Assembly: GCA_048941015.1 (NCBI GenBank)
Contig: JBHLNZ010000002.1
Location: 32,001 to 96,000, forward strand
Length of the DNA stretch: 64,000 bases
Origin: Promethearchaeota archaeon
GTDB lineage: Archaea > Asgardarchaeota > Lokiarchaeia > Sigyniarchaeales > SOKP01
Direction: 5' to 3'
Of the stretch, positions 18,410 through 32,293 are shown in pieces. Both the position numbers and the translations under genes were made by a program. The first letter of the stretch is position 1; the number at the start of each line of letters is the position of its first letter. The notes below the pieces were generated by a model. It saw only the letters and a list, made by a program, of their open reading frames with translations. It had not been told where the DNA came from and did not search any database.

Positions 18410-18928
18410 CTATTTTTCTTTAAAAATATCTAATAAGTTCTTCAATGTTAAATCATCTATTACATTTTTTAAAACGGCCTTTCCTATTGGTGTGACTTTA
18501 ATCAATCCTAAATCTTTCAATTCACGTAAATAGTCCTTTTGAATTAGGAAATTGATATCAGAAGCCCATACTTCAGAAAAAATTTCTTTTAAGTCACTAA
18601 TTTTTATGTTTTCATCAATTTCTTTACTTAAAGCTACTATTAAAGCTAAAGTACCATATTGCGAAGGTGTAATGTCATCATCTTTTCCATTAGTGGCTAA
18701 TACATAGAATTTTTGATCTAAAAATTTCGAGGTGACAATTTCAAATCCAATCTTTTTCAAATTCAAGTAAATACTATTAATAATATCTTCGAAGTTAAAA
18801 TTCTTGGATAAATTTCTTAGATCTTCTTCTCTTATCATTTTTTGGGGACTTGTTAATATCAATCTTGTTATTTGCTCAACAGTTTCTTCAAAATTAGTAT
18901 TTTCCATATTTAGCTCATTCATTCTCAT
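18410..18928 (-). CDS. Tandem winged-helix protein, Nse1/Nse3(MAGE)/KITE-like
   Basis: WH-A: FEDIINSIYLNLKKIGFEIV...KFYVLATN; WH-B: GTLALIVAL...FLIQKDYL...IKVTPIGKAVL; overlaps the SMC-like gene. Confidence 0.55.
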   Translation of the reverse strand: MRMNELNMENTNFEETVEQITRLILTSPQKMIREEDLRNLSKNFNFEDIINSIYLNLKKIGFEIVTSKFLDQKFYVLATNGKDDDITPSQYGTLALIVALSKEIDENIKISDLKEIFSEVWASDINFLIQKDYLRELKDLGLIKVTPIGKAVLKNVIDDLTLKNLLDIFKEK

Positions 18929-20510
18929 TAATTTTTATTATTTTTAAATTCTTAATTTTATCTTTTAGTTCAATATTAGATAAAATAAAGATTAGATTAA
19001 ATTGAGTTAGATTATTTTTAACCTCAAATTGTGGTAATATTTTTTTCATTGTTCTTATTAGAGAGCCTCTTTTATTATAAATAGGGGGAAGAAATAAATT
19101 AGAGAATAAAATGTTTTCACTTCTAATTAATACTTTTATAGAAACATATAAAGTTATAACAAAAAATATTTTTTCTGGAGTTGTTAATTGTTCGAAGTAA
19201 ATTTGTTCCTTATTATTTCTTATAAAAGTCAATAAAATGAAGAAATTCTGTGAATTTTCTTCAATGGTTATCTCAAGATTGACTGATAAATTTATTTCAT
19301 TTAAAAAGGTTTTCAATAAAACTTCTAAATCTTGAATAAGAATTTCAATTTTTCTAAAACTTTCAAGTGAGGTTTTTGTGTTATTTTCATTAAAGCTAAT
19401 TTTTGTTTTACTTAATTCGTTAATTTTCTTTTCTATCTTTTTTAATTCACTTTTTATTGATGATAAATCAAATAGGCATTCAGGATTATACAACTTACTT
19501 AACTTTTCAATCTTTTTTAACTCAATTTCTAATTCTTCAATTTCTTGCACGATAATAGTTGGATTTCTCACTGTTCTTGCTTTCATATCGCTTAAGTCAT
19601 TCATAATTTTAGCCTCGGAAGAATTCATTTCTTTTATAACTTCCTGCTGTAAAATTTTCATTTTTTTTTCATCATTTCGTATTGTTTCTAAGATTTTTTG
19701 GTAATCCGATTCATAAGTTAAAAATTGGGGTTCAATTTTCTGATATTTTTCTTTAGAGTTATCCAATTTTGTTTTAGTTTGATTAATCTGAGATTGAACT
19801 TCCTTTGCCTGTATTTGGAGATTTCTTATTCTTTGAGAATAAGACGTGGCTGAGTTTTTACCTGTTTCACTAGATGAGTCAATTTCCATATCACGAGTAA
19901 TTTTATTAATTTGACTAAAAAGATTTTTTCTTTTCGTAATTAAATTCTGGATCTGTTGATTATATTCATCAATTACTTTTTTTACTTGATCAAATTGATT
20001 ACTTATCTTTATAAAATCTTGTTCCAAGTATTTTGACTTATTTTTATTAAGCTTTATCGAATCATCTAATTTCTTTAATAAATCTTTTGTTGCTGCTAAA
20101 TCACTTAACTTTTGATACTTTCTCGAAAGTTCTAATTCCTCTAGCAAAATTTTCTTTGTTTTACTGAGTGTATTGATTTTAAAAATTAAAATTAATTCTT
20201 GGACAATTTGATGATATTGACTTATTATTTCGAGATTTTTCATACTTGTATTATTAAATTTTTTTAAAAAAGAAAGTAAATTTAAAGAGAGATGAATTTT
20301 TTCAAATTGTTCAGGAAGACTTTGTAATAAATGAATAAAGTCTTCTAAAGGAATTAATTCTATTTTATTTAGAATTTTTAAATATTGTTCATCAAAATCC
20401 TCGAGCAATTGATCTTTTTTGAATTTACCAAGAATTAAAGTATATTTATCTCTAATTTCTATTTCCTTTGATCCAATAGAAAGTATATTTTCATGAAGTT
20501 TAATTTTTAT
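18915..20510 (-). CDS. Short SMC/Rad50-like coiled-coil protein with degenerate ABC head motifs
   Basis: The frame is open upstream of the annotated TTG (20408) to the TAA at 20526-20528 and encodes IKIKLHENILSIGSKEIEIRDKYTLILGKFKKDQ (SMC N-terminus-like); long coiled coil; C-terminal EQLTTPEKIFFVITL resembles LSGGEK. Start uncertain (ATA 20510 / ATT 20504). Confidence 0.55.
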   Translation of the reverse strand: MKIKLHENILSIGSKEIEIRDKYTLILGKFKKDQLLEDFDEQYLKILNKIELIPLEDFIHLLQSLPEQFEKIHLSLNLLSFLKKFNNTSMKNLEIISQYHQIVQELILIFKINTLSKTKKILLEELELSRKYQKLSDLAATKDLLKKLDDSIKLNKNKSKYLEQDFIKISNQFDQVKKVIDEYNQQIQNLITKRKNLFSQINKITRDMEIDSSSETGKNSATSYSQRIRNLQIQAKEVQSQINQTKTKLDNSKEKYQKIEPQFLTYESDYQKILETIRNDEKKMKILQQEVIKEMNSSEAKIMNDLSDMKARTVRNPTIIVQEIEELEIELKKIEKLSKLYNPECLFDLSSIKSELKKIEKKINELSKTKISFNENNTKTSLESFRKIEILIQDLEVLLKTFLNEINLSVNLEITIEENSQNFFILLTFIRNNKEQIYFEQLTTPEKIFFVITLYVSIKVLIRSENILFSNLFLPPIYNKRGSLIRTMKKILPQFEVKNNLTQFNLIFILSNIELKDKIKNLKIIKINENE

Positions 20511-20525
20511 TTCACTTCTACTTTG

Positions 20526-21560
20526 TTAATCAATTTTATCAAAATGATTTTTAAATTCTTTATACTCCTTTTCCTTTTTCTTTTTTCTTTTTCTAATTAT
20601 TTCTAGTGGATCTGATTCATTATCTTTCATTATTAGATATTTTTCTTGAAAAGATTCGGTGAATTGTGATTTAAATTTTTCAATTTTTTCTGTAACTTCA
20701 TCGCTAAGTTTTATATCTTCTGATTTTTTTGTGGATTTAGGCTTTTTTAGTGTTTGCCTTTTTCCTTTCCGTAATTTCCTTTCAAATTCTTTGTGGGATA
20801 ATTTTAAGTAATCTTCATATAATCCCTTTCTTTCTTCTTGTTCTTTTTTTAATTTTTCAAATTCTTCCATTTCTTTGATCTTTTTTAGAATTTCCTTCTT
20901 ATTTTTAATTTCTTCATGACTTGCTTGATTTTCAAGACTTTTTAAAAATTTCTCAAAAGTTAATTCGGGATTTCTATAAAATTTCTCTTTAAATTGATCC
21001 TTTAGTAAAGGATCGATATTATTTGGTAAATTCCTTAATTGGATTTCAAGTTTCTTTTGAAGAATTTTATTATAAAAAGCATTTAGTTTCATAATGATAC
21101 TAGAAAAAATTGTGTTTTGTTTTAAAGAATCAAATAATTCAACCCATTTAACTAAATCAATTGCTAAGGTATAAGATGTCTTATCCAATATTTTAGATAT
21201 TTTTTTATTTTCTATGAAAAAAAGACCTATTAGGTGAGTATCTCCTTTTTGTAATTTCAAACTTTTTAATTTATCTTTATAGCTCTCCTTATATCTTTTT
21301 ATTAAACTATTTCTAAAATCTAAGAAACTCTTAATATTTTCATTAGTAATTTCAGTGAGATTATTATTAATTTTGTTTAAAGTTTTAAACATATTTTCTA
21401 ATTCAAGTGAATTCTGAGTATCTGGAAAAGTCAGATTTAATTTTGAGTTCTTTAATTTTTCTGATATTTCGTTTAATTGATTGATTTTTCCTTGAAGATC
21501 ATCTATAGATGAGGTTAGTTCTTTAATTTTTTCTAGATTAAATGATTGAGTCTTTTTCAT
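20526..21560 (-). CDS. Hypothetical K/E-rich coiled-coil protein
   Basis: 344-aa ORF in the operon; heptad-rich and highly charged. Confidence 0.65.
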   Translation of the reverse strand: MKKTQSFNLEKIKELTSSIDDLQGKINQLNEISEKLKNSKLNLTFPDTQNSLELENMFKTLNKINNNLTEITNENIKSFLDFRNSLIKRYKESYKDKLKSLKLQKGDTHLIGLFFIENKKISKILDKTSYTLAIDLVKWVELFDSLKQNTIFSSIIMKLNAFYNKILQKKLEIQLRNLPNNIDPLLKDQFKEKFYRNPELTFEKFLKSLENQASHEEIKNKKEILKKIKEMEEFEKLKKEQEERKGLYEDYLKLSHKEFERKLRKGKRQTLKKPKSTKKSEDIKLSDEVTEKIEKFKSQFTESFQEKYLIMKDNESDPLEIIRKRKKKKEKEYKEFKNHFDKID

Positions 21561-21581
21561 TGTTAAATTGTAATAATATTT

Positions 21582-22700
21582 TTATAATTCTCGTGGTCCT
21601 GATAAACTTTTTCTATTATTAGGCAATGGAATATTTCTTTCAATTCTTTTTCTAGAATCACTTAAAATATCTTGTCTTTCTACGTGAATAGCAGTTCCTC
21701 CAACTAATTTCAGTGAATTATAAAATAGATCGTAAGTTAAACGCTCAGTATTAATAGCTTTTAAGATTGCGACTCTAGTTCCTCTTTCTATATCTGATCC
21801 TGAATATCCGTATGTTAACTCTAATAGTCCTTCCATTTTAAATTTCTTATTAAATTCGTTCCATAATAAATTATTATCAAATTCAGAGACTTTATGCCCT
21901 ATTTTCTTTTCTAATGAACTTCTAATTTCATCAATTTTCTGATGCTCGTTATTTAAGTTATTGAATATTGAATTATCAACTCCAATTTTAGCACTTTTAA
22001 CTTTATTAAGGAATACCTCAATAATTTGTTTTCTTAAATTATAATCAGGAAATTCAAAACTTAAATGAAATGTAAATCTTCTCCAGATTGCTGAATCAAG
22101 TTGATGCTGATGGTTAGTTGCCCCAAAAATAGCCAATGGAACCCCTTCATAATTAATTCTATCAATTACTTGTAGAAAAGAGATGACAGCACGTTTTATT
22201 TCTCCTACCTCATGAATATTTGATCTTTCAGAACCAATAGCATCAATCTCATCGAAAAATAATATAAAAGAGCCTCTTTCTTTTGCTATTTCTGCTGATA
22301 AATCTACAACACGTCTAATTTGTTTGATTGTATCTCCTAACAATGGCGATACAAGGCGATCAGTTTCTACAACACAGATAGGAATATTATATTTCTTAGC
22401 AAAACCTCTTGTTAGTGAGGTTTTTCCTGTACCTGGTGGACCATATAAAAGAACAGTTAAACTTGGGTTAAGTTTTGCTCCTTTTAATTGTTCCATAAAA
22501 TCATCATATTTTTTTAAAGCCGTAAAGAAATCATCAAGAATCTCTTTTTTAACTTCATTACCTAAGATATCATCAACAGTTTCTCTAATTTCATTTGGAA
22601 AATAAACAGCTCCAAATTTCCCCATCCGGTCTTTTATTACGTCATCTGTATAGGTGGTTTTTACTTCAACTTCTTTTTTTGAATTACTAATTTTTCTCAA
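21582..22700 (-). CDS. AAA+ ATPase (single module)
   Basis: Walker A GPPGTGKT, Walker B FFDEID, sensor/SRH GATNH..LDSAIWRRF. Confidence 0.9.
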   Translation of the reverse strand: MRKISNSKKEVEVKTTYTDDVIKDRMGKFGAVYFPNEIRETVDDILGNEVKKEILDDFFTALKKYDDFMEQLKGAKLNPSLTVLLYGPPGTGKTSLTRGFAKKYNIPICVVETDRLVSPLLGDTIKQIRRVVDLSAEIAKERGSFILFFDEIDAIGSERSNIHEVGEIKRAVISFLQVIDRINYEGVPLAIFGATNHQHQLDSAIWRRFTFHLSFEFPDYNLRKQIIEVFLNKVKSAKIGVDNSIFNNLNNEHQKIDEIRSSLEKKIGHKVSEFDNNLLWNEFNKKFKMEGLLELTYGYSGSDIERGTRVAILKAINTERLTYDLFYNSLKLVGGTAIHVERQDILSDSRKRIERNIPLPNNRKSLSGPREL

Positions 22701-22715
22701 CTCTTTTTTAGTGAT

Positions 22716-24023
22716 TTATTTATTTTTCCTTTCTTTATCAAATTTTTCACAAAATTCTGCTATCTCAATAATAAAATCCTTAAGGTTATCAATTTGTGAA
22801 CCTATAAAATTAAAAATTTCTTTTCTATACTGAGGCGAATCTCTTATTTTCATTTTATTTAATCCTAAATAATTTGGGAAACAAATAAGCTTCATTAAAT
22901 AAGGGAGGATTTTCTCGTTTGTTTGTAAATCTTTGAAAATAGAATAAAAAATATTTTCATCAGATAATTTCCACTTTAAAATTCCCATATAAATTAAAAA
23001 AGAGAAATTCATTGAAATCCAATTGATTAATTCTTTTGATAAAAAACCTCTTCTCTGAGCAGCAAATGCTAAATAATATAAGATCAAAGTTTCATTACTA
23101 AATTGAGGTAATAATCTTATAGTTCCATCTGATTGTTTACTCTCACGTAAAAAGTTGGATTTCAGAAGCAAATCTACGAAATCTTCTTTAGGTGCTAAGA
23201 AAATATTGTCAATAACTCGTAAACCTATTCTTTCAGAAAGAGACGTAATTGCTTCTTCTTCTGCGTTAGCAATAGAATCAATAAAAGGTGCAAAGACTTC
23301 ATTTTTTAATATCATGGGGATTTCATAGTTCTCTTTTTCAGGAAAATCTCCAAAGTTAGGATCTAAATTGAATAAAGATGTAATATTATTTATTACTTGA
23401 TAAACTTTGGGCGTCATTCCGGGAATTTCAAAGAAGTCAGAACTTTCAATTTTTTCTCGGTAATAAGTATGAGGTTGTAAAATATGTCTTTGACATTCGT
23501 AAAAATTTGTTGAATAGCTTAATAATTTTTGATAAACTAAGTTTAGATTTTGTGCTCGTGGAAACAATTTATCTTCAATATATTTAACTAAAATATATAA
23601 ATATGTGTTCTTTAAATCTGTTTCATCAGGATTAGTTATTCTACGTAATATATTTAAAGCTTCGACTGATTCAAAGAGAAAGTCAATAATGTAATCTTTT
23701 ATATCTATTATTGGGATTTCTTCACGATATTTAACAATAAAATCCTTAATAATCTCGTACACGTTAGATCTATACATCGCAGAAAATTCAGATAAAGCTC
23801 TAACCTTTCTAATATTCCTTTTTTCTTCTTCTTGGCGTATTTTATCTAATACTTCAGTGTCAAGGAGAAGATCAGCATCTAAATCACTTATAATTCTTCT
23901 TGTTTCTCTAAGTATAGGTCGCATATGGCTTATAAAAGTAAGATATCTCGGAAGTATATCAGTCCATTTCTCTCTTTTTCTGCTTGGTTTTACTGTTCTC
24001 GAAGATTTTTTCTTATAACTCAT
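22716..24023 (-). CDS. Hypothetical protein (435 aa, largely helical)
   Basis: Long ORF with SD-like AAGGTGA upstream; part of a tightly spaced operon. Confidence 0.7.
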   Translation of the reverse strand: MSYKKKSSRTVKPSRKREKWTDILPRYLTFISHMRPILRETRRIISDLDADLLLDTEVLDKIRQEEEKRNIRKVRALSEFSAMYRSNVYEIIKDFIVKYREEIPIIDIKDYIIDFLFESVEALNILRRITNPDETDLKNTYLYILVKYIEDKLFPRAQNLNLVYQKLLSYSTNFYECQRHILQPHTYYREKIESSDFFEIPGMTPKVYQVINNITSLFNLDPNFGDFPEKENYEIPMILKNEVFAPFIDSIANAEEEAITSLSERIGLRVIDNIFLAPKEDFVDLLLKSNFLRESKQSDGTIRLLPQFSNETLILYYLAFAAQRRGFLSKELINWISMNFSFLIYMGILKWKLSDENIFYSIFKDLQTNEKILPYLMKLICFPNYLGLNKMKIRDSPQYRKEIFNFIGSQIDNLKDFIIEIAEFCEKFDKERKNK

Positions 24024-24048
24024 TAAATTATCACCTTTTTAAAACTTA

Positions 24049-25185
24049 TTATTCTTCATAACCAACTAAAACTTCAGCAAAAATATTTGCAATTTCAATA
24101 AAAATTGGGATTTCTACTCTGCAGAGATTTCCTAGAATCCACTTGTTGACATCTTTTAATAAAAAGCGGATTTGATTATGTATTTTTTTATTAACTTCTG
24201 AATCAATTATTTTTGTTAACCATAATCCCCCTCCTAGTCTATATGCAATTATTTTAATTAATGGTTCAAATAGTGGTTCTAATACTTCTCTCATCATCCA
24301 AGATTTAGGGATTATACTCATTTTTTGTTGATCGAAACTAGGATCATTAAGAATTGGGTTAGTTTCATCGACTGTAACTTTAGGCATAAAACTAAGTAAT
24401 AAAATTAATGCAAATATTGCTGAAATCCCATTAACCGTATAAGTGCCCCCAATTTTTTCAAGATCATCCCGATTGACTGCGATGTTAGATAGAAACATAC
24501 AAATAAAGATATTTCTATCAAATTCTTCAGAAACATATGCATATCCTAATTGTTCATCAATAATAAGATATTTTTCTTCAAGGATTTTTATAATCTCATC
24601 TGGAAATGTATAAAAAGTATAAATTCTTTTCTCACTTTTTCTTACATCCTTTTCAATAATCAATTCCTTAGAAATAAGACCAAACATGTCTATTAAATCT
24701 TCTAATTGTTTTTTTACATAATGCTTAGGTTTATTAGGATCGCCAAACATCGCAAAAAATTGATGGTCTACAATATGAAAGTCGTTCCTTTTACTAAATG
24801 CCTCAACCATTCTATCTATTATTGGCCCTTGGCTACCAGAAGCAATAGCTTTAGCTTTCGAGGTGACAAATCCATTTAATAATTCATTTATAATAAAATC
24901 TTGTTCATGAGTTCTTGATTTTAAGATTTGGGTAAAATTTTTTGCAAAGTCTTTAATTGTAGGAAAGAAGGAATTTTGAATTTTATCATCGATCGATTTT
25001 ACAAAGAGCTCTCCATTATTTTTTGGAAAATGAAGTTTTATATTATTTAGCCTTTGTATTAAAGCTTCTTTAGCTCCAGGTATATTATCTATATCTCTAT
25101 TTTCAATTTGTTCAATTGCTTTATTCAATCCAATTTCAAAATCCTTTAATAATTCTTTCCAGGTTTTGTCGCTAACTTCTGTCAT
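24049..25185 (-). CDS. Hypothetical protein (378 aa)
   Basis: Long ORF in the operon; possible internal winged helix. Confidence 0.7.
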   Translation of the reverse strand: MTEVSDKTWKELLKDFEIGLNKAIEQIENRDIDNIPGAKEALIQRLNNIKLHFPKNNGELFVKSIDDKIQNSFFPTIKDFAKNFTQILKSRTHEQDFIINELLNGFVTSKAKAIASGSQGPIIDRMVEAFSKRNDFHIVDHQFFAMFGDPNKPKHYVKKQLEDLIDMFGLISKELIIEKDVRKSEKRIYTFYTFPDEIIKILEEKYLIIDEQLGYAYVSEEFDRNIFICMFLSNIAVNRDDLEKIGGTYTVNGISAIFALILLLSFMPKVTVDETNPILNDPSFDQQKMSIIPKSWMMREVLEPLFEPLIKIIAYRLGGGLWLTKIIDSEVNKKIHNQIRFLLKDVNKWILGNLCRVEIPIFIEIANIFAEVLVGYEE

Positions 25186-25225
25186 AAATTCTCAATCTTC
25201 TTAGCCTATAATAATTAATATCCTA

Positions 25226-26179
25226 TCAATTTAATTCTAACTTTACTTTATTTAATGCGTTTATTAACGGTTTTAGAATTTTTTTATCATAGATATTTGG
25301 AGAAGATACTCCCTTTTGGGCTTTCCATCCCATTTGTGTACCCTCACCCATCTCTCTTTGACCATATTTCAGTATTTTACTGAGATCTCGAATCCACCAA
25401 TAAAACCTTAACCATCTTTTATTAGGATTATCTTTTGAATATATAACTACGACCGCTTTCCACTCTCCCATTAACCATTTAATTGTAATCCCACTTACAG
25501 GCAAGTAATAATTGATTGGAAAGTTACTATGAAAACGTAAATCAAGATCTTCGGCAGAGATATTAAATATTGGTTGATTATATCCTTCTAAAATAACTAT
25601 CTCTCCACAATGAGGACACTCATAGTGTGATTTCATCTTATCCATCTTTTTTTGACATTTTGGGCAAGTTTTATTCTCTATTATTCTATATTTAAAAAGA
25701 TCTATATTTTTTTCTTTTTCTTGTTCCTCTTTAGTTTTTGCTTGCTGCTTTCCATACTTTCCCTTCCAATTCCAAATTTCATCAAAAGAGATCTCAATTT
25801 GTTCCAATGCTCTTATTAAATTTTCAAGAACGTGCTTATCATATATTTTAAGCATTCCAGCATGTTGATAACTTTTCCACCAAGAAAGTCTTACATATTT
25901 TTCATCTTTTAAGAAGGGGCTATGGCATATTAAAACAGCTAATAAACGATTTTCTGTTTTGCTTATTGTAATCCCTTTCTCACATACTTCATATTCTTTA
26001 TTGAGGCTGACGTTATTATGAAAATATTCTCCATCTTGAAAATCCCCTTCTTCAACTTCATCCTTTTCTTTTCTTTTTGAAATTTCATCTTTTTCTTTAA
26101 TAATTTTTCTACATTGAGGACATTGAAAAATACCTGCTACTAATGGTTCCATATCAATATTACATAAAGGACATTTCAC
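25226..26179 (-). CDS. Protein with two tandem [Zn-ribbon + PC4/YdbC-like] repeats
   Basis: CPLC..CPQC and CPKC..CPHC, each followed by GITI...R.[SY]WW...IYDK..L..LI.AL. Confidence 0.65.
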   Translation of the reverse strand: MKCPLCNIDMEPLVAGIFQCPQCRKIIKEKDEISKRKEKDEVEEGDFQDGEYFHNNVSLNKEYEVCEKGITISKTENRLLAVLICHSPFLKDEKYVRLSWWKSYQHAGMLKIYDKHVLENLIRALEQIEISFDEIWNWKGKYGKQQAKTKEEQEKEKNIDLFKYRIIENKTCPKCQKKMDKMKSHYECPHCGEIVILEGYNQPIFNISAEDLDLRFHSNFPINYYLPVSGITIKWLMGEWKAVVVIYSKDNPNKRWLRFYWWIRDLSKILKYGQREMGEGTQMGWKAQKGVSSPNIYDKKILKPLINALNKVKLELN

Positions 26180-27294
26180 TCTGAATCATCACTACTGGTA
26201 ATAAGTAATCTTTCATAATCGAGATTTAAAAGTTTTAATTCTTTTCTATTAAATTTCGAAATTTTTTCATTTAATTCTATAACATTACTCCTTAATTCAA
26301 TAAGAGAGTCTTGAATATTATTTATGATGTTGTCTTCATTAAATGAGACTTTTTCAATAAATTTAAGATAATTATATTTTTTTTCTTTTCCAGAATAAAA
26401 TCTTTTGATACCTAATAATTTAGTTTCAATATTCTCTGATTTAAATCTAAAATCTAAAAGTGATAATAATTTTGAATACCAATGCTTAAAGATTTTATTA
26501 TTCTTATCAATTTTTTCAAAATTAAATTTCTCTGGAAGCTCTACTTTTTCATCCTTTAGAGATTTAATAATATCTTTTTGTTCCTTTATTGCTCTAATTA
26601 TTTTTTTTATAATGGGCAGATTATTTAATATTGGATCAAAAATTTCAATAAACTTAGCAATCTTGTCTTGAATTTCCTTAAATCTTTGATAAAATCCTTC
26701 AATAGTAATTTCAATTTTTATCGTTTGATAAACATTACCAAATTGATCAAGGATGATGTAAAGATCATCTGATAAAGTATAATCATGTTCTCCAATTTCA
26801 GAAATAAGATGATGTATTACATTAGATCTTTCACATCTAACATCTTTTAGCTTTGGTAACGCTAAATTGAAATTTCTGCGTGTTAAATTTTTAAATTTTT
26901 TGTTAATTATTAAAAATAAGGTATCAGCAGGTACAGAAATTATGTCATTTTCAATGGTGATCGTTTCTTCTCCTAATTTAACAATAAAATCTTCATCTTT
27001 TTGCTCAAATTCTCTAACACTTCTAATATTTTTGAATAAACCCAAATCAATTGTGATTTCAATAAATTCTTGATTCCAAAAGTTCAAAATATTAGTTTTA
27101 TATATTTCATCTAATTCTAAAATCTTCTCGTAGGCTTCTATTATTTTTTTATTAGTTAAATTTTTGAATAAGTCGTTTCTTATAACATATAAAAATAAAA
27201 CGATATATCTCATATCAATATCATCGAGAATTTTCTCGATTAAGTCTTTATCATATTCCATTACTAAATTCTTATGTTCCAAACCTAAAATCAA
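26176..27294 (-). CDS. Hypothetical protein (possible wHTH + coiled coil), first gene of the operon
   Basis: 372-aa ORF; 4-bp overlap with the next gene. Confidence 0.65.
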   Translation of the reverse strand: MILGLEHKNLVMEYDKDLIEKILDDIDMRYIVLFLYVIRNDLFKNLTNKKIIEAYEKILELDEIYKTNILNFWNQEFIEITIDLGLFKNIRSVREFEQKDEDFIVKLGEETITIENDIISVPADTLFLIINKKFKNLTRRNFNLALPKLKDVRCERSNVIHHLISEIGEHDYTLSDDLYIILDQFGNVYQTIKIEITIEGFYQRFKEIQDKIAKFIEIFDPILNNLPIIKKIIRAIKEQKDIIKSLKDEKVELPEKFNFEKIDKNNKIFKHWYSKLLSLLDFRFKSENIETKLLGIKRFYSGKEKKYNYLKFIEKVSFNEDNIINNIQDSLIELRSNVIELNEKISKFNRKELKLLNLDYERLLITSSDDSE

Positions 27295-27472
27295 CTTGTT
27301 AAGTAATAATTGATTCAGCTAAAAAGAGTAATTAAAGAAATTAAGCATTCCTAAAAAATCTTTCGATTTCCTTGAATCTACAACAGAAAAAAGCGAAAAT
27401 TTTTTAGATTTGATTTCCTTTTACTTCTTGAATTAGAAATTTAAATTATCTATTTTAAAAAGTTGAATATCA

Positions 27473-28054
27473 ATGGGAAGAAGAAAAAGAAAACAGCAGA
27501 CTTATAAACGCGTAAAAAAAGTTCCTAAGATTTTCACTTGCCCAAACTGTGGGGAAAAGTCAGTAAAAGTGGAAAATATAAGGAAATCAGCAATTGCTAC
27601 TGTTAAATGTGGGCATTGCGGTTTAACTAAAGATGTATTGGTTAACTCTATTTCAGAACCAGTGGATGCTTTCGGTGATTTTATTGATATCTATTATGCT
27701 GATCAAGAAATTCAGAGACTAGAAAGACGTATTGCTAAATTAAAAAAGGATAACCAATGGGGGGAGCTTGCTCTTTCCTATTCAATTTTAGCAGATTTAT
27801 GTAAAGCAAAAGCTGCTGAGTTATTAGAAGATTCTGAAAATGTTGATGAAGATGAAGTATTAAGATGGAGATCAAAAGCTGAACAGTATAAGAAGCTAGA
27901 AAAGGAAGCATTACTACAACTAGAAACTCTTGAATTAGAAAAAGGTATTAAAACTGATGAAGAGTCATTATTTTCTGAACATGATGAAAGTGATATAAAA
28001 AAAGAACGAAAAATAAATGATATCTTTGATGATCCAGGATTTTTAGAATGGTAA
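27473..28054 (+). CDS. elf1: Transcription elongation factor Elf1 with long C-terminal extension
   Basis: MGRRKRK...FTCPNC...CGHC...EPVDAFGDFID is the Elf1 signature; about 115 extra helical/acidic residues follow. Confidence 0.85.
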   Translation: MGRRKRKQQTYKRVKKVPKIFTCPNCGEKSVKVENIRKSAIATVKCGHCGLTKDVLVNSISEPVDAFGDFIDIYYADQEIQRLERRIAKLKKDNQWGELALSYSILADLCKAKAAELLEDSENVDEDEVLRWRSKAEQYKKLEKEALLQLETLELEKGIKTDEESLFSEHDESDIKKERKINDIFDDPGFLEW

Positions 28055-31255: not shown

Positions 31256-32293
31256 CTATGTTATTGGATATGATGCTGTTAAAATATTATCCTTATAATT
31301 TGCTTTGATTACTTTCGCTTTAATTACTTTCCCTATTAGATCTTCAGAAAAAGTTAATGGTCTTTTTAGCAGTACTTTTATACCAACATTGTTATTAATT
31401 TTACCAATACATTCCCAATTCCACCTACCTTGTGAGACAATCTGTAGGTTTATAAGATCATTTTTTTTTAAAGCTGAAGAATACGAAGTAGTTCGTTTAT
31501 GTATTCCAAAATCTTTTGGACCTAGTTTCAATTTAATATTATATTTTTTTTCTAATTTCGACAGATATTTATAAAAATAATCCCAAGATTTGGGACGGAT
31601 TTTTTTCAATTTTCTTCCAGTTTTATATATTAAATATTTTTGAATGCCTATTTGAATTTTGAGTTCAGAATAACCTTCATTACGTAAATTTAAAACATAT
31701 TGAATTATTTCTTCAATATCCAAGTCATTTACACCAGGAAACCAGACTGGAGCAATTAAAACATTAATATTGGTGTTTAATAGAGTTTCAATGTTTTTAA
31801 TAACTTTGTGTAGATCATAATTCGAACAATCACATAAATAGTATGCTAAATCTTCATTTAATGTGTTTAAACTTATGTTGATACGAGTTAGGTTGTTATT
31901 ATTTAACATTTGAATGTTTTTTGAATTAAGCATTATCCCATTACTTTGCATAGAAACAACTTTTATTCCTTTAACATTCCATAGCTCACTTAAGAGTTTA
32001 AATAAATCTGGATAAAGTAGTATTTCACCATACGGAGCAATATGAATTTCTATATCATGATATCCTTTTATTTTCACTAAAGATTTTACTTTTTTTATAA
32101 GGTATTTATATTCAACTATAAAATTAGTATGATAATCACCAGCTTTTACAAAACAGTATTTGCATTTGAGGTTACATAAAGTTATAGGTTTAAGTTCAAT
32201 TATATTTGTCCCACGATCAATTAAACCGATAAAATCTACACCCATTATGGGGATATTAGAATTCTCATCAATATGAATAAAATTATTTATCAT
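31256..32293 (-). CDS. Archaeal radical SAM protein (COG2100-like)
   Basis: GLIDRGTNIIE, CNLKCKYC, C-terminal beta domain. Confidence 0.85.
   Translation of the reverse strand: MINNFIHIDENSNIPIMGVDFIGLIDRGTNIIELKPITLCNLKCKYCFVKAGDYHTNFIVEYKYLIKKVKSLVKIKGYHDIEIHIAPYGEILLYPDLFKLLSELWNVKGIKVVSMQSNGIMLNSKNIQMLNNNNLTRINISLNTLNEDLAYYLCDCSNYDLHKVIKNIETLLNTNINVLIAPVWFPGVNDLDIEEIIQYVLNLRNEGYSELKIQIGIQKYLIYKTGRKLKKIRPKSWDYFYKYLSKLEKKYNIKLKLGPKDFGIHKRTTSYSSALKKNDLINLQIVSQGRWNWECIGKINNNVGIKVLLKRPLTFSEDLIGKVIKAKVIKANYKDNILTASYPIT

Follow-up and report, generated by a model that had tools for sequence, protein, structure and literature searches.

Complexes of structural maintenance of chromosomes (SMC) proteins are universal organisers of chromosomes, and to our knowledge all known ones depend on their own ATPase heads of the ATP-binding cassette (ABC) type. 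The Lokiarchaeia are a lineage used for reconstructing the origin of eukaryotic Smc5/6 and its Nse subunits. According to a preprint, TACK and Asgard archaea carry two SMC-kleisin-kite operons, and some Asgard archaea have a third kite gene that lies together with additional SMC and kleisin genes (van Hooff et al., bioRxiv 10.1101/2024.01.07.573240). Here, we describe an operon of eight genes in a stretch of 64,000 nucleotides from a Loki-type Asgard archaeon (positions 32,001 to 96,000 of contig JBHLNZ010000002.1, assembly GCA_048941015.1; contig C58 of genome G000 in our set). This stretch is referred to as the window; its GC content is low, about 28%. The eight open reading frames (ORFs) lie co-directionally on the minus strand at positions 18410-27294 of the window and are named g1 to g8 in transcription order. 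Neighbouring genes share 4 or 14 bp or have 15-40 bp between them, exactly the layout that an earlier note on this DNA had described. We think it fairly probable that this operon specifies a third SMC-type complex, particular to Lokiarchaeia, in which a dead clamp or tether would be powered by a AAA+ ATPase. No mention of a dead ATPase, an AAA+ partner or the g1-g4 families was found in the sections of the preprint that were consulted.

The gene g7 (minus strand, 18915..20510) encodes a mini-SMC/Rad50-like protein of about 531 aa. Its AlphaFold2 model (predicted local distance difference test, pLDDT, 84.6) begins with strands at the N-terminus, from which a helix of 140 residues leads to a hairpin apex (residues 212-219); further helices run back, giving an antiparallel coiled-coil hairpin. 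The C-terminal alpha/beta half packs with the N-terminus into an ABC-type head. In Foldseek searches, the model matched Rad50 (7zr1_C, E 5.6e-10) and a Pyrococcus Smc head with its coiled coil (5xei, 1.9e-7), and further matches, to E 1e-5, were to Smc5/6, LmuB, JetC and MukB. When the head was aligned on Rad50 with VIA, Z reached 11.4 for 4ncj_D (root-mean-square deviation, rmsd, 4.0; 196 residues) and 11.3 for 3qkt_A. The SMC-like coiled coil of the earlier note is thus joined, in the model, to a Rad50/SMC-type head. No SMC hinge was seen: the apex is a simple hairpin in the model, and Pfam SMC_hinge matches only the SMC of another contig (C32) in this genome. A CxxC zinc hook is also lacking, with no cysteine at the apex of g7 or of its orthologues.

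All three nucleotide-binding motifs of this head have decayed, as the earlier note had suspected. The Walker A position reads LILGKFKKD where GxxGxGKS/T is canonical, and its loop has just three residues ahead of the helix. The signature is LTTPEK instead of LSGGEK, and Walker B is ILFSNLF instead of hhhhDE. The replacement residues at the ATP site are conserved within family f1 (TLILGKFKK, LTTPEK, IIFSNLF). As modelled, g7 is a Rad50/SMC-fold protein with an ABC-type head and decayed ATPase motifs.

The gene g8 (minus strand, 18410..18928) encodes a 172-aa KITE-like protein. Its AlphaFold2 model, built from a 17-sequence alignment, is a confident tandem winged helix (pLDDT 87.7), and the top PDB matches in Foldseek were Nse1 (7dg2_A, E 1.3e-5), the MAGE-G1/Nse1 complex, Nse3, ScpB and JetB. 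In a second structural alignment, only KITE proteins matched g8 over its full length, the best being Nse3 (7dg2_C; VIA Z 11.1, rmsd 4.7, 159 residues); single-domain winged-helix regulators came next at Z ~7-8. The modelled fold thus agrees with the KITE identity that had been claimed for this protein. Profile comparison by hhalign aligned g8 with the kite family of the SMC operon on contig C32 (76%, E 2.3e-5, 97 columns; the kleisin-family control gave E 0.22) and detected no similarity to the ScpB of the same genome. Pfam gave no ScpB or MAGE match for g8, and PDB sequence-profile searches with g8, g7, g4, g3 and g2 yielded nothing other than noise, coiled coils or zinc ribbons. In one single-contig genome of 4.32 Mb, the orthologue of g8 (L046 10910-11647, plus strand) carries a long, low-complexity C-terminal (KKKTT)n tail, unlike other orthologues.

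Upstream of g7 lies g6 (minus strand, 20526..21560), which encodes a helical protein of 344 aa with a Lys-rich tail. It adjoins g7 and g8 and is exchanged together with them in the variant operons described below. The complex of g7, g6 (residues 1-290) and g8 was predicted with g6 as the partner and with three controls. The prediction score (ipSAE) was 0.62 and that of the best control 0.30; 58/80 solved complexes and 2/110 mismatched pairs attain that mark. At least 34% of the contacts agreed between runs, and the pLDDT of the partner was at least 61. In the model, residues 2-89 of g6 contact residues 81-114 and 347-382 of g7, which form the coiled-coil neck beside the head, and residues 125-166 contact both winged helices of g8, predicted contacts that may reflect likeness to solved complexes. 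Since SMC-kleisin-kite complexes have already been solved, passing the score shows likeness, not proof of binding.

The contacts among g6, g7 and g8 are thus supported by the model, and g6 is a candidate for bridging the g7 neck and g8 in the manner of the N-terminal and central parts of a kleisin. The earlier note had looked for the kleisin among the 372-, 378- and 435-aa products; this was probably wrong, the complex model pointing to the 344-aa g6. Pfam gave nothing consistent on 16 g6 orthologues, and hhalign found nothing between g6 and either the kleisin of the C32 operon or an Nse4_C-like protein from a sister operon (see below). Pfam ScpA and Nse4_C matched nothing in the whole genome.

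The window's genome holds two ordinary SMC operons, so the operon described here represents a third SMC-type set. One of the two, on contig C64 (L073, 68378-74657), encodes Smc (1482 aa), a ScpA-like protein (207 aa) and ScpB (254 aa; PF04079, 7.7e-32). The other, on contig C32 (L072, 8248-14128), encodes a 407-aa protein, a hinge-bearing SMC of 1168 aa and proteins of 216 and 169 aa. The 407-aa gene upstream of the C32 SMC belongs to no family.

How does g6-g8 compare with described systems? As in archaeal Smc5/6-related operons and eukaryotic Smc5/6-Nse1-Nse3-Nse4, three adjacent genes encode an SMC fold, a bridge and a tandem winged-helix kite. The best structural matches of g8 are Nse3 and Nse1, its profile similarity is to the C32 kite, and the type III sister operon contributes an Nse4_C-like kleisin, albeit with a sub-threshold score. 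Unlike in Smc5/6-type systems, g7 has half the normal length, no hinge and no ATP motifs, g6 has no Nse4/ScpA similarity, five extra conserved genes including an ever-present AAA+ gene are found, and the order is kleisin-SMC-kite. With Smc-ScpAB the operon shares the SMC-kleisin-KITE logic, and ScpB (6juv, 3w6j) and Smc (5xei, 5xg2, 4i99) match g8 and g7, respectively. However, the genome has its own Smc-ScpA-ScpB on C64, to whose ScpB g8 shows no profile similarity, and g7 lacks hinge and ATPase motifs. Rad50/SbcC provides the best Foldseek and head match of g7, and in both the coiled coil is a hairpin without an SMC hinge; g7 differs in having neither zinc hook nor ATPase motifs and in its kleisin-like and KITE partners. 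No operon product matched the Mre11/SbcD nuclease in Pfam or NCBIfam.

Likeness to Wadjet and Lamassu lies in JetB, JetC and LmuB among the structural matches and in a compact operon with an SMC-like and accessory proteins. Unlike these systems, the operon is core and syntenic, not patchy, and its PADLOC matches cover only coiled coil or generic ABC regions. No JetD Toprim nuclease, LmuA effector or other nuclease was recognised in the eight products by Pfam, NCBIfam or PADLOC. Where the earlier note had proposed a relation to SMC5/6 or Wadjet, the first half is supported, through the profile similarity of g8 to the C32 kite, and the second is not, for want of a JetD-like nuclease. These comparisons support an affinity to the archaeal Smc5/6-type lineage rather than to Wadjet.

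In 12/12 loci from the window's genus, g1-g8 had the same order and the same flanking genes. On 80 public genome contigs, the eight genes were colinear in 67/67 complete loci; the other 13 contigs were left out of the count, because the locus runs into a contig end or the sequence does not suffice for classification. The order was also kept in a second Lokiarchaeia family (f2), where two of the genomes concerned are single contigs (6.04 and 4.32 Mb). The operon is therefore not a chance arrangement, and the gene order, on whose conservation the earlier note had made its reading depend, has held.

The most conserved gene, g4 (minus strand, 22716..24023; a 435-aa orphan), served as a marker for tracing the operon. 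A g4 profile detected the family in 62/68 genomes of f1 and 6/7 of f2, and in none of ~225 other Asgard genomes sampled. Among 1.84 billion proteins it matched only 43 cluster representatives. Across Asgard, the operon is thus near-universal within two families, syntenic and, in the window's genome, single-copy. Loss of the operon in five relatives of 92-100% completeness was considered and not accepted: in two of these the contig ends beside the flanking Lsm gene, and three lack the flank too. The apparent absences are assembly gaps rather than shown losses. Metagenome contigs often end in or beside g6/g7 or at the operon flank (L106, L110, L116, L160, L175, L181; G152:C10; G025:C94 = L069). 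These ends suggest that diversity between strains disrupts assembly here, so that some high-quality bins seem to be without the operon.

Ratios of nonsynonymous to synonymous substitution rates (dN/dS) were computed across 14 independent close pairs. They were 0.08-0.10 for g3, g4 and g5 (g4 0.081, g3 0.088), 0.105 for g8, 0.12-0.16 for g1 and g2 (g1 0.16), 0.26 for g6 and 0.30 for g7. All eight are protein genes under purifying selection, the "dead" SMC-like g7 included. That the operon is near-universal, single-copy and syntenic, with housekeeping genes around it, speaks for a cellular, chromosome-related role over a mobile defence island.

The most informative new result is a set of sister operons in which g1-g5 are followed by other SMC-like modules. 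Type II operons occur in two f1 genomes, G085 (L055, 8891-13962) and G148 (L056, 8593-13405), the latter from the window's own genus. Here g6-g8 are absent, and g1-g5 precede genes for a mini-SMC of 644 or 669 aa and for proteins of about 150 aa. The ATPase motifs of this mini-SMC are intact (GRTAAGKS/GRTASGKS, VSGGEK/LSGGER, LIGDE/IVGDD). Members of the ~150-aa family have N-termini such as "..VVIEFKYxS". Downstream of the type II operons lie genes for a PAPS-reductase/4Fe-4S protein and an HhH-GPD glycosylase in G085, and for DUF5591 and TGT-like proteins in G148, neighbours that hint at nucleic-acid modification or repair.

Type III operons occur in the f2 genomes G032 (L067, 3827-15137) and G050 (L204, 3-10928). 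They consist of very divergent g2, g1, g3, g4 and AAA+ genes, with 21-38% identity to the window's proteins, followed by four further genes; in G032, g2 is on the opposite strand. The SMC-like protein has 1057 or 1071 aa, an intact P-loop (GKNGSGKS) and matches to Pfam AAA_21, AAA_23 and AAA_29. The other three genes encode a winged-helix-like protein of 322 aa, a protein of 313 aa and a kite-like protein of 176 aa that aligns weakly with g8. The 313-aa protein scored 1.3e-3 against Nse4_C (PF08743), which is sub-threshold, and no further relatives of it were found in 301 Asgard genomes. G032 also has a C32-type kite elsewhere in the genome, and a partial type III-like g4 homologue is present in one genome of another family (G376). 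Comparison of g7 with the type III SMC by hhalign gave coiled-coil noise only. With PADLOC, the proteins of the sister operons showed no more than a generic ABC similarity, at a level that the hinge-bearing SMC of the window's genome also reaches.

Because the same g1-g5 genes are followed by an SMC-like gene across the types, the evolution of this module is tied to that of an SMC-type module. Plausibly, ATP competence is the ancestral condition and the window's operon (type I) the common, degenerate form. The three types form a natural series with one shared partner module: the SMC is full-length and live in type III, small and live in type II, and small and dead in type I.

Within this module, g5 (minus strand, 21582..22700) encodes a single-domain classic-clade AAA+ ATPase of 372 aa. 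It is the only one of the eight products above the Pfam cut-off (AAA, PF00004; 1.1e-24, 87.8 bits against a cut-off of 21.2), in line with the earlier statement that nothing else here is readily annotatable. For the other seven products, Pfam, NCBIfam and PADLOC gave no family, only noise from zinc ribbons and coiled coils. The Walker motifs of g5 are intact (A, GPPGTGKT; B, FFDEID), so that a separate AAA+ ATPase is indeed encoded alongside the SMC-like gene, as the earlier note had said. The best PDB relatives are AAA domains of VAT/p97/Cdc48 (7.5e-36). Among curated families, g5 scored highest with those of the Ietas system (PADLOC IetA, 1.8e-58; NCBIfam IteA, 3.4e-52), with which it shares a single AAA domain of the classic clade. 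Unlike genuine Ietas members, it reaches 177.8 bits where the IteA cut-off is 510, and neither IetS nor another protease was found among the eight products by Pfam, NCBIfam or PADLOC.

The gene g2 (minus strand, 25226..26179) encodes a 317-aa protein made of two copies of a unit, a CxxC...CxxC zinc ribbon followed by a beta/alpha domain of about 100 aa. The four Cys pairs are invariant in the alignment, and hhalign detected the internal duplication (98%, E 1.3e-13, 123 columns). Pfam and NCBIfam gave weak matches to generic zinc ribbons. The zinc-ribbon label of the earlier note is borne out by the two units and their Cys pairs, but its "PC4" label finds no support at the sequence level: g2 matched none of PC4 (PF02229), PurA (PF04845), DUF3276 (PF11680) and the PDB sequences. 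We presume that g2 is a nucleic-acid binder.

The orphan protein g3 (minus strand, 24049..25185; 378 aa) is probably a distant paralogue of g4, judging from the profile alignment of the two (85%, E 6.2e-6, 226 columns) and, as a further hint, from cross-matches in genome searches. The two may form a heterodimer. Neither had a PDB profile match or a usable ESM Atlas match. The first gene of the operon, g1 (minus strand, 26176..27294), encodes an orphan protein of 372 aa with a conserved N-terminal region, possibly a winged helix by its sequence, and a C-terminal helical region. It belongs to no Pfam, NCBIfam or PADLOC family, and divergent homologues are located near the head of the type III operons. 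The g1-g4 orphan families are essentially restricted to this operon and are therefore candidates for new SMC regulators.

The ORF list places the start of g7 at a TTG, giving a protein of 497 aa (18915..20408). The conserved N-terminus (pattern "...I.IG..EI.I.D+.TLI.GKFKK") extends about 34 codons further upstream, near 20510, and orthologues match from residue 2-10 of a translation starting at ATA 20510. In the window, no ATG, GTG or TTG precedes this N-terminus (20409-20528). The start of g7 is probably the non-canonical ATA at 20510 or ATT at 20504. At least 18/74 orthologous loci (within L104-L183) also lack a canonical start before the conserved N-terminus, and nearly all of these have ATT, ATA or ATC at the conserved position; a sequencing error is thus unlikely. 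Stop-codon readthrough from g6 into g7 was rejected as a general mechanism: in the window the g6 TAA is in frame with g7, but the g6 stop is in frame in 16/74 loci compared with 30 and 28 for the other frames. Translation of g7 probably begins at a non-canonical codon or by termination-reinitiation coupled to g6. Since the conserved N-terminus often has no ATG, GTG or TTG, gene callers will truncate g7.

In the model that we favour, g6-g8 would constitute an SMC-like core, with the N-terminal helices of g6 on the neck of the shrunken, nucleotide-motif-free g7 and its middle part holding the KITE protein g8. This dead unit may serve as a passive scaffold, a clamp or tether associated with DNA or another nucleic acid. 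The constant module g1-g5, which accompanies the SMC-like core also where the sister operons have diverged strongly, would act as its partner. A hexamer of the AAA+ protein g5 would supply the energy for assembly, opening or removal of the g6-g8 unit, in effect replacing the lost SMC ATPase, and g2 may be the nucleic-acid contact of the complex. DNA binding, the role of the AAA+ protein and the biological function of the complex are conjectural parts of this model. A bolder version, possible but doubtful, is that an SMC-derived DNA clamp has outsourced its motor, so that an AAA+ unfoldase, helped by g3/g4 and g2, loads, opens or strips a kleisin-closed complex.

Several observations weigh against the model. 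The sequence of the candidate kleisin g6 resembles neither ScpA nor Nse4, nor any kleisin of the window's genome, and the complex model, calculated with residues 1-290, reported no contact of its C-terminal part with the g7 cap, so that a neck-and-cap bridge is only half seen. Furthermore, g7 has neither a hinge nor a zinc hook through which it might dimerise. No operon protein belongs to a demonstrated DNA-binding family, g2 matching generic zinc ribbons only, and g5 scores best, albeit under the family cut-off, with the defence ATPase IetA. Lastly, the evolutionary rate of g6 and g7 is roughly threefold that of the adjacent genes, and rare relatives have exchanged the SMC module for another, a pattern also found in conflict systems.

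The main rival is a system for surveillance or defence, similar to Wadjet or Lamassu but fixed in the chromosome, in which g6-g8 would sense foreign or aberrant DNA and g1-g5, with the IetA-like AAA+ protein, would act on it as effector or remodelling module. We regard it as rather unlikely. The top scores of g5 with IetA and IteA suggest such a system, but the IteA score is far under the cut-off and the IetS partner is missing. There is likewise a weak resemblance of g7 and its counterparts in the sister operons to LmuB and JetC, but the PADLOC ABC matches are generic, the genome's hinge-bearing SMC scoring as well. Hypervariability fits defence: in the same public loci, median identity was 44% for g6 and 39% for g7 compared with 74-81% for g3-g5 (g3 79%, g4 81%) and 67% for g1 (66 loci), and dN/dS was threefold higher. 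Yet the dN/dS values of 0.26-0.30 denote relaxed purifying selection, not gene-wide positive selection. Contigs frequently break inside g6/g7, and the SMC module has been exchanged for two other types in related genomes, g1-g5 staying in place. Against this, two families keep the operon almost universally, in single copy and in strict synteny, beside Elf1, Lsm and HypB genes and with no mobile elements, and no nuclease, protease or other effector was recognised.

Alternatively, the operon may not encode a DNA machine at all, the dead coiled coil being re-used as a structural arm of a protein-remodelling or cell-architecture complex, for the cytoskeleton, the membrane or division, driven by a Cdc48-like AAA+ segregase. 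That the ATP motifs of g7 are all lost and their replacements nevertheless conserved suggests a new non-enzymatic interface, the closest relatives of g5 are unfoldase domains of VAT/p97/Cdc48, and no DNA-binding family was confirmed in the operon. However, kleisin-like and KITE partners have been retained, the sister operons encode an ATP-competent SMC and an Nse4_C-like kleisin, and the four conserved Cys pairs of g2 are typical of nucleic-acid binders; this makes the proposal quite unlikely in our view. That two unrelated modules, an AAA+ system (g1-g5) and an SMC-like remnant (g6-g8), independently share one transcript is very improbable: the two parts differ in evolutionary rate and the second can be swapped without the first, but an SMC-like gene follows g1-g5 in all three operon types, even at 21-38% identity, the block is colinear in all 67 complete loci, and the g4 family was never found outside such operons in the loci examined.

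The operon is flanked by Elf1-like, Lsm and HypB-like genes, and no mobile elements were seen in the neighbourhood inspected. The Elf1-like zinc-ribbon gene (plus strand, 27473-28054; PF05129, 2.4e-19), which is divergent from g1, has a C-terminal extension of about 115 residues. Its place beside g1 is kept in both families (L013-L024, L046, L047, L053). The 178 bp between the two genes (27295..27472) are presumed to be the promoter region of the operon. Contigs with a g4 80-88% identical to that of the window carry the submitter labels Hodarchaeota, Odinarchaeota, Thorarchaeota, Hermodarchaeota and "Nanopelagicaceae bacterium" (L107, L116, L127, L138, L139, L145), labels that do not fit the sequence similarity.

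New here are the sister operons with ATP-competent SMC-like proteins, the probable g3/g4 paralogy, the duplication within g2 and the conserved N-terminus of g7 that often has no canonical start codon. If the motor has truly been outsourced, the closest archaeal relatives of eukaryotes would drive an SMC-type machine in a way that is so far unknown, and the type II and III operons with their live SMC ATPases would be natural intermediates. A dead-head SMC-kleisin-KITE-like unit with an obligatory AAA+ partner would be a new design principle.

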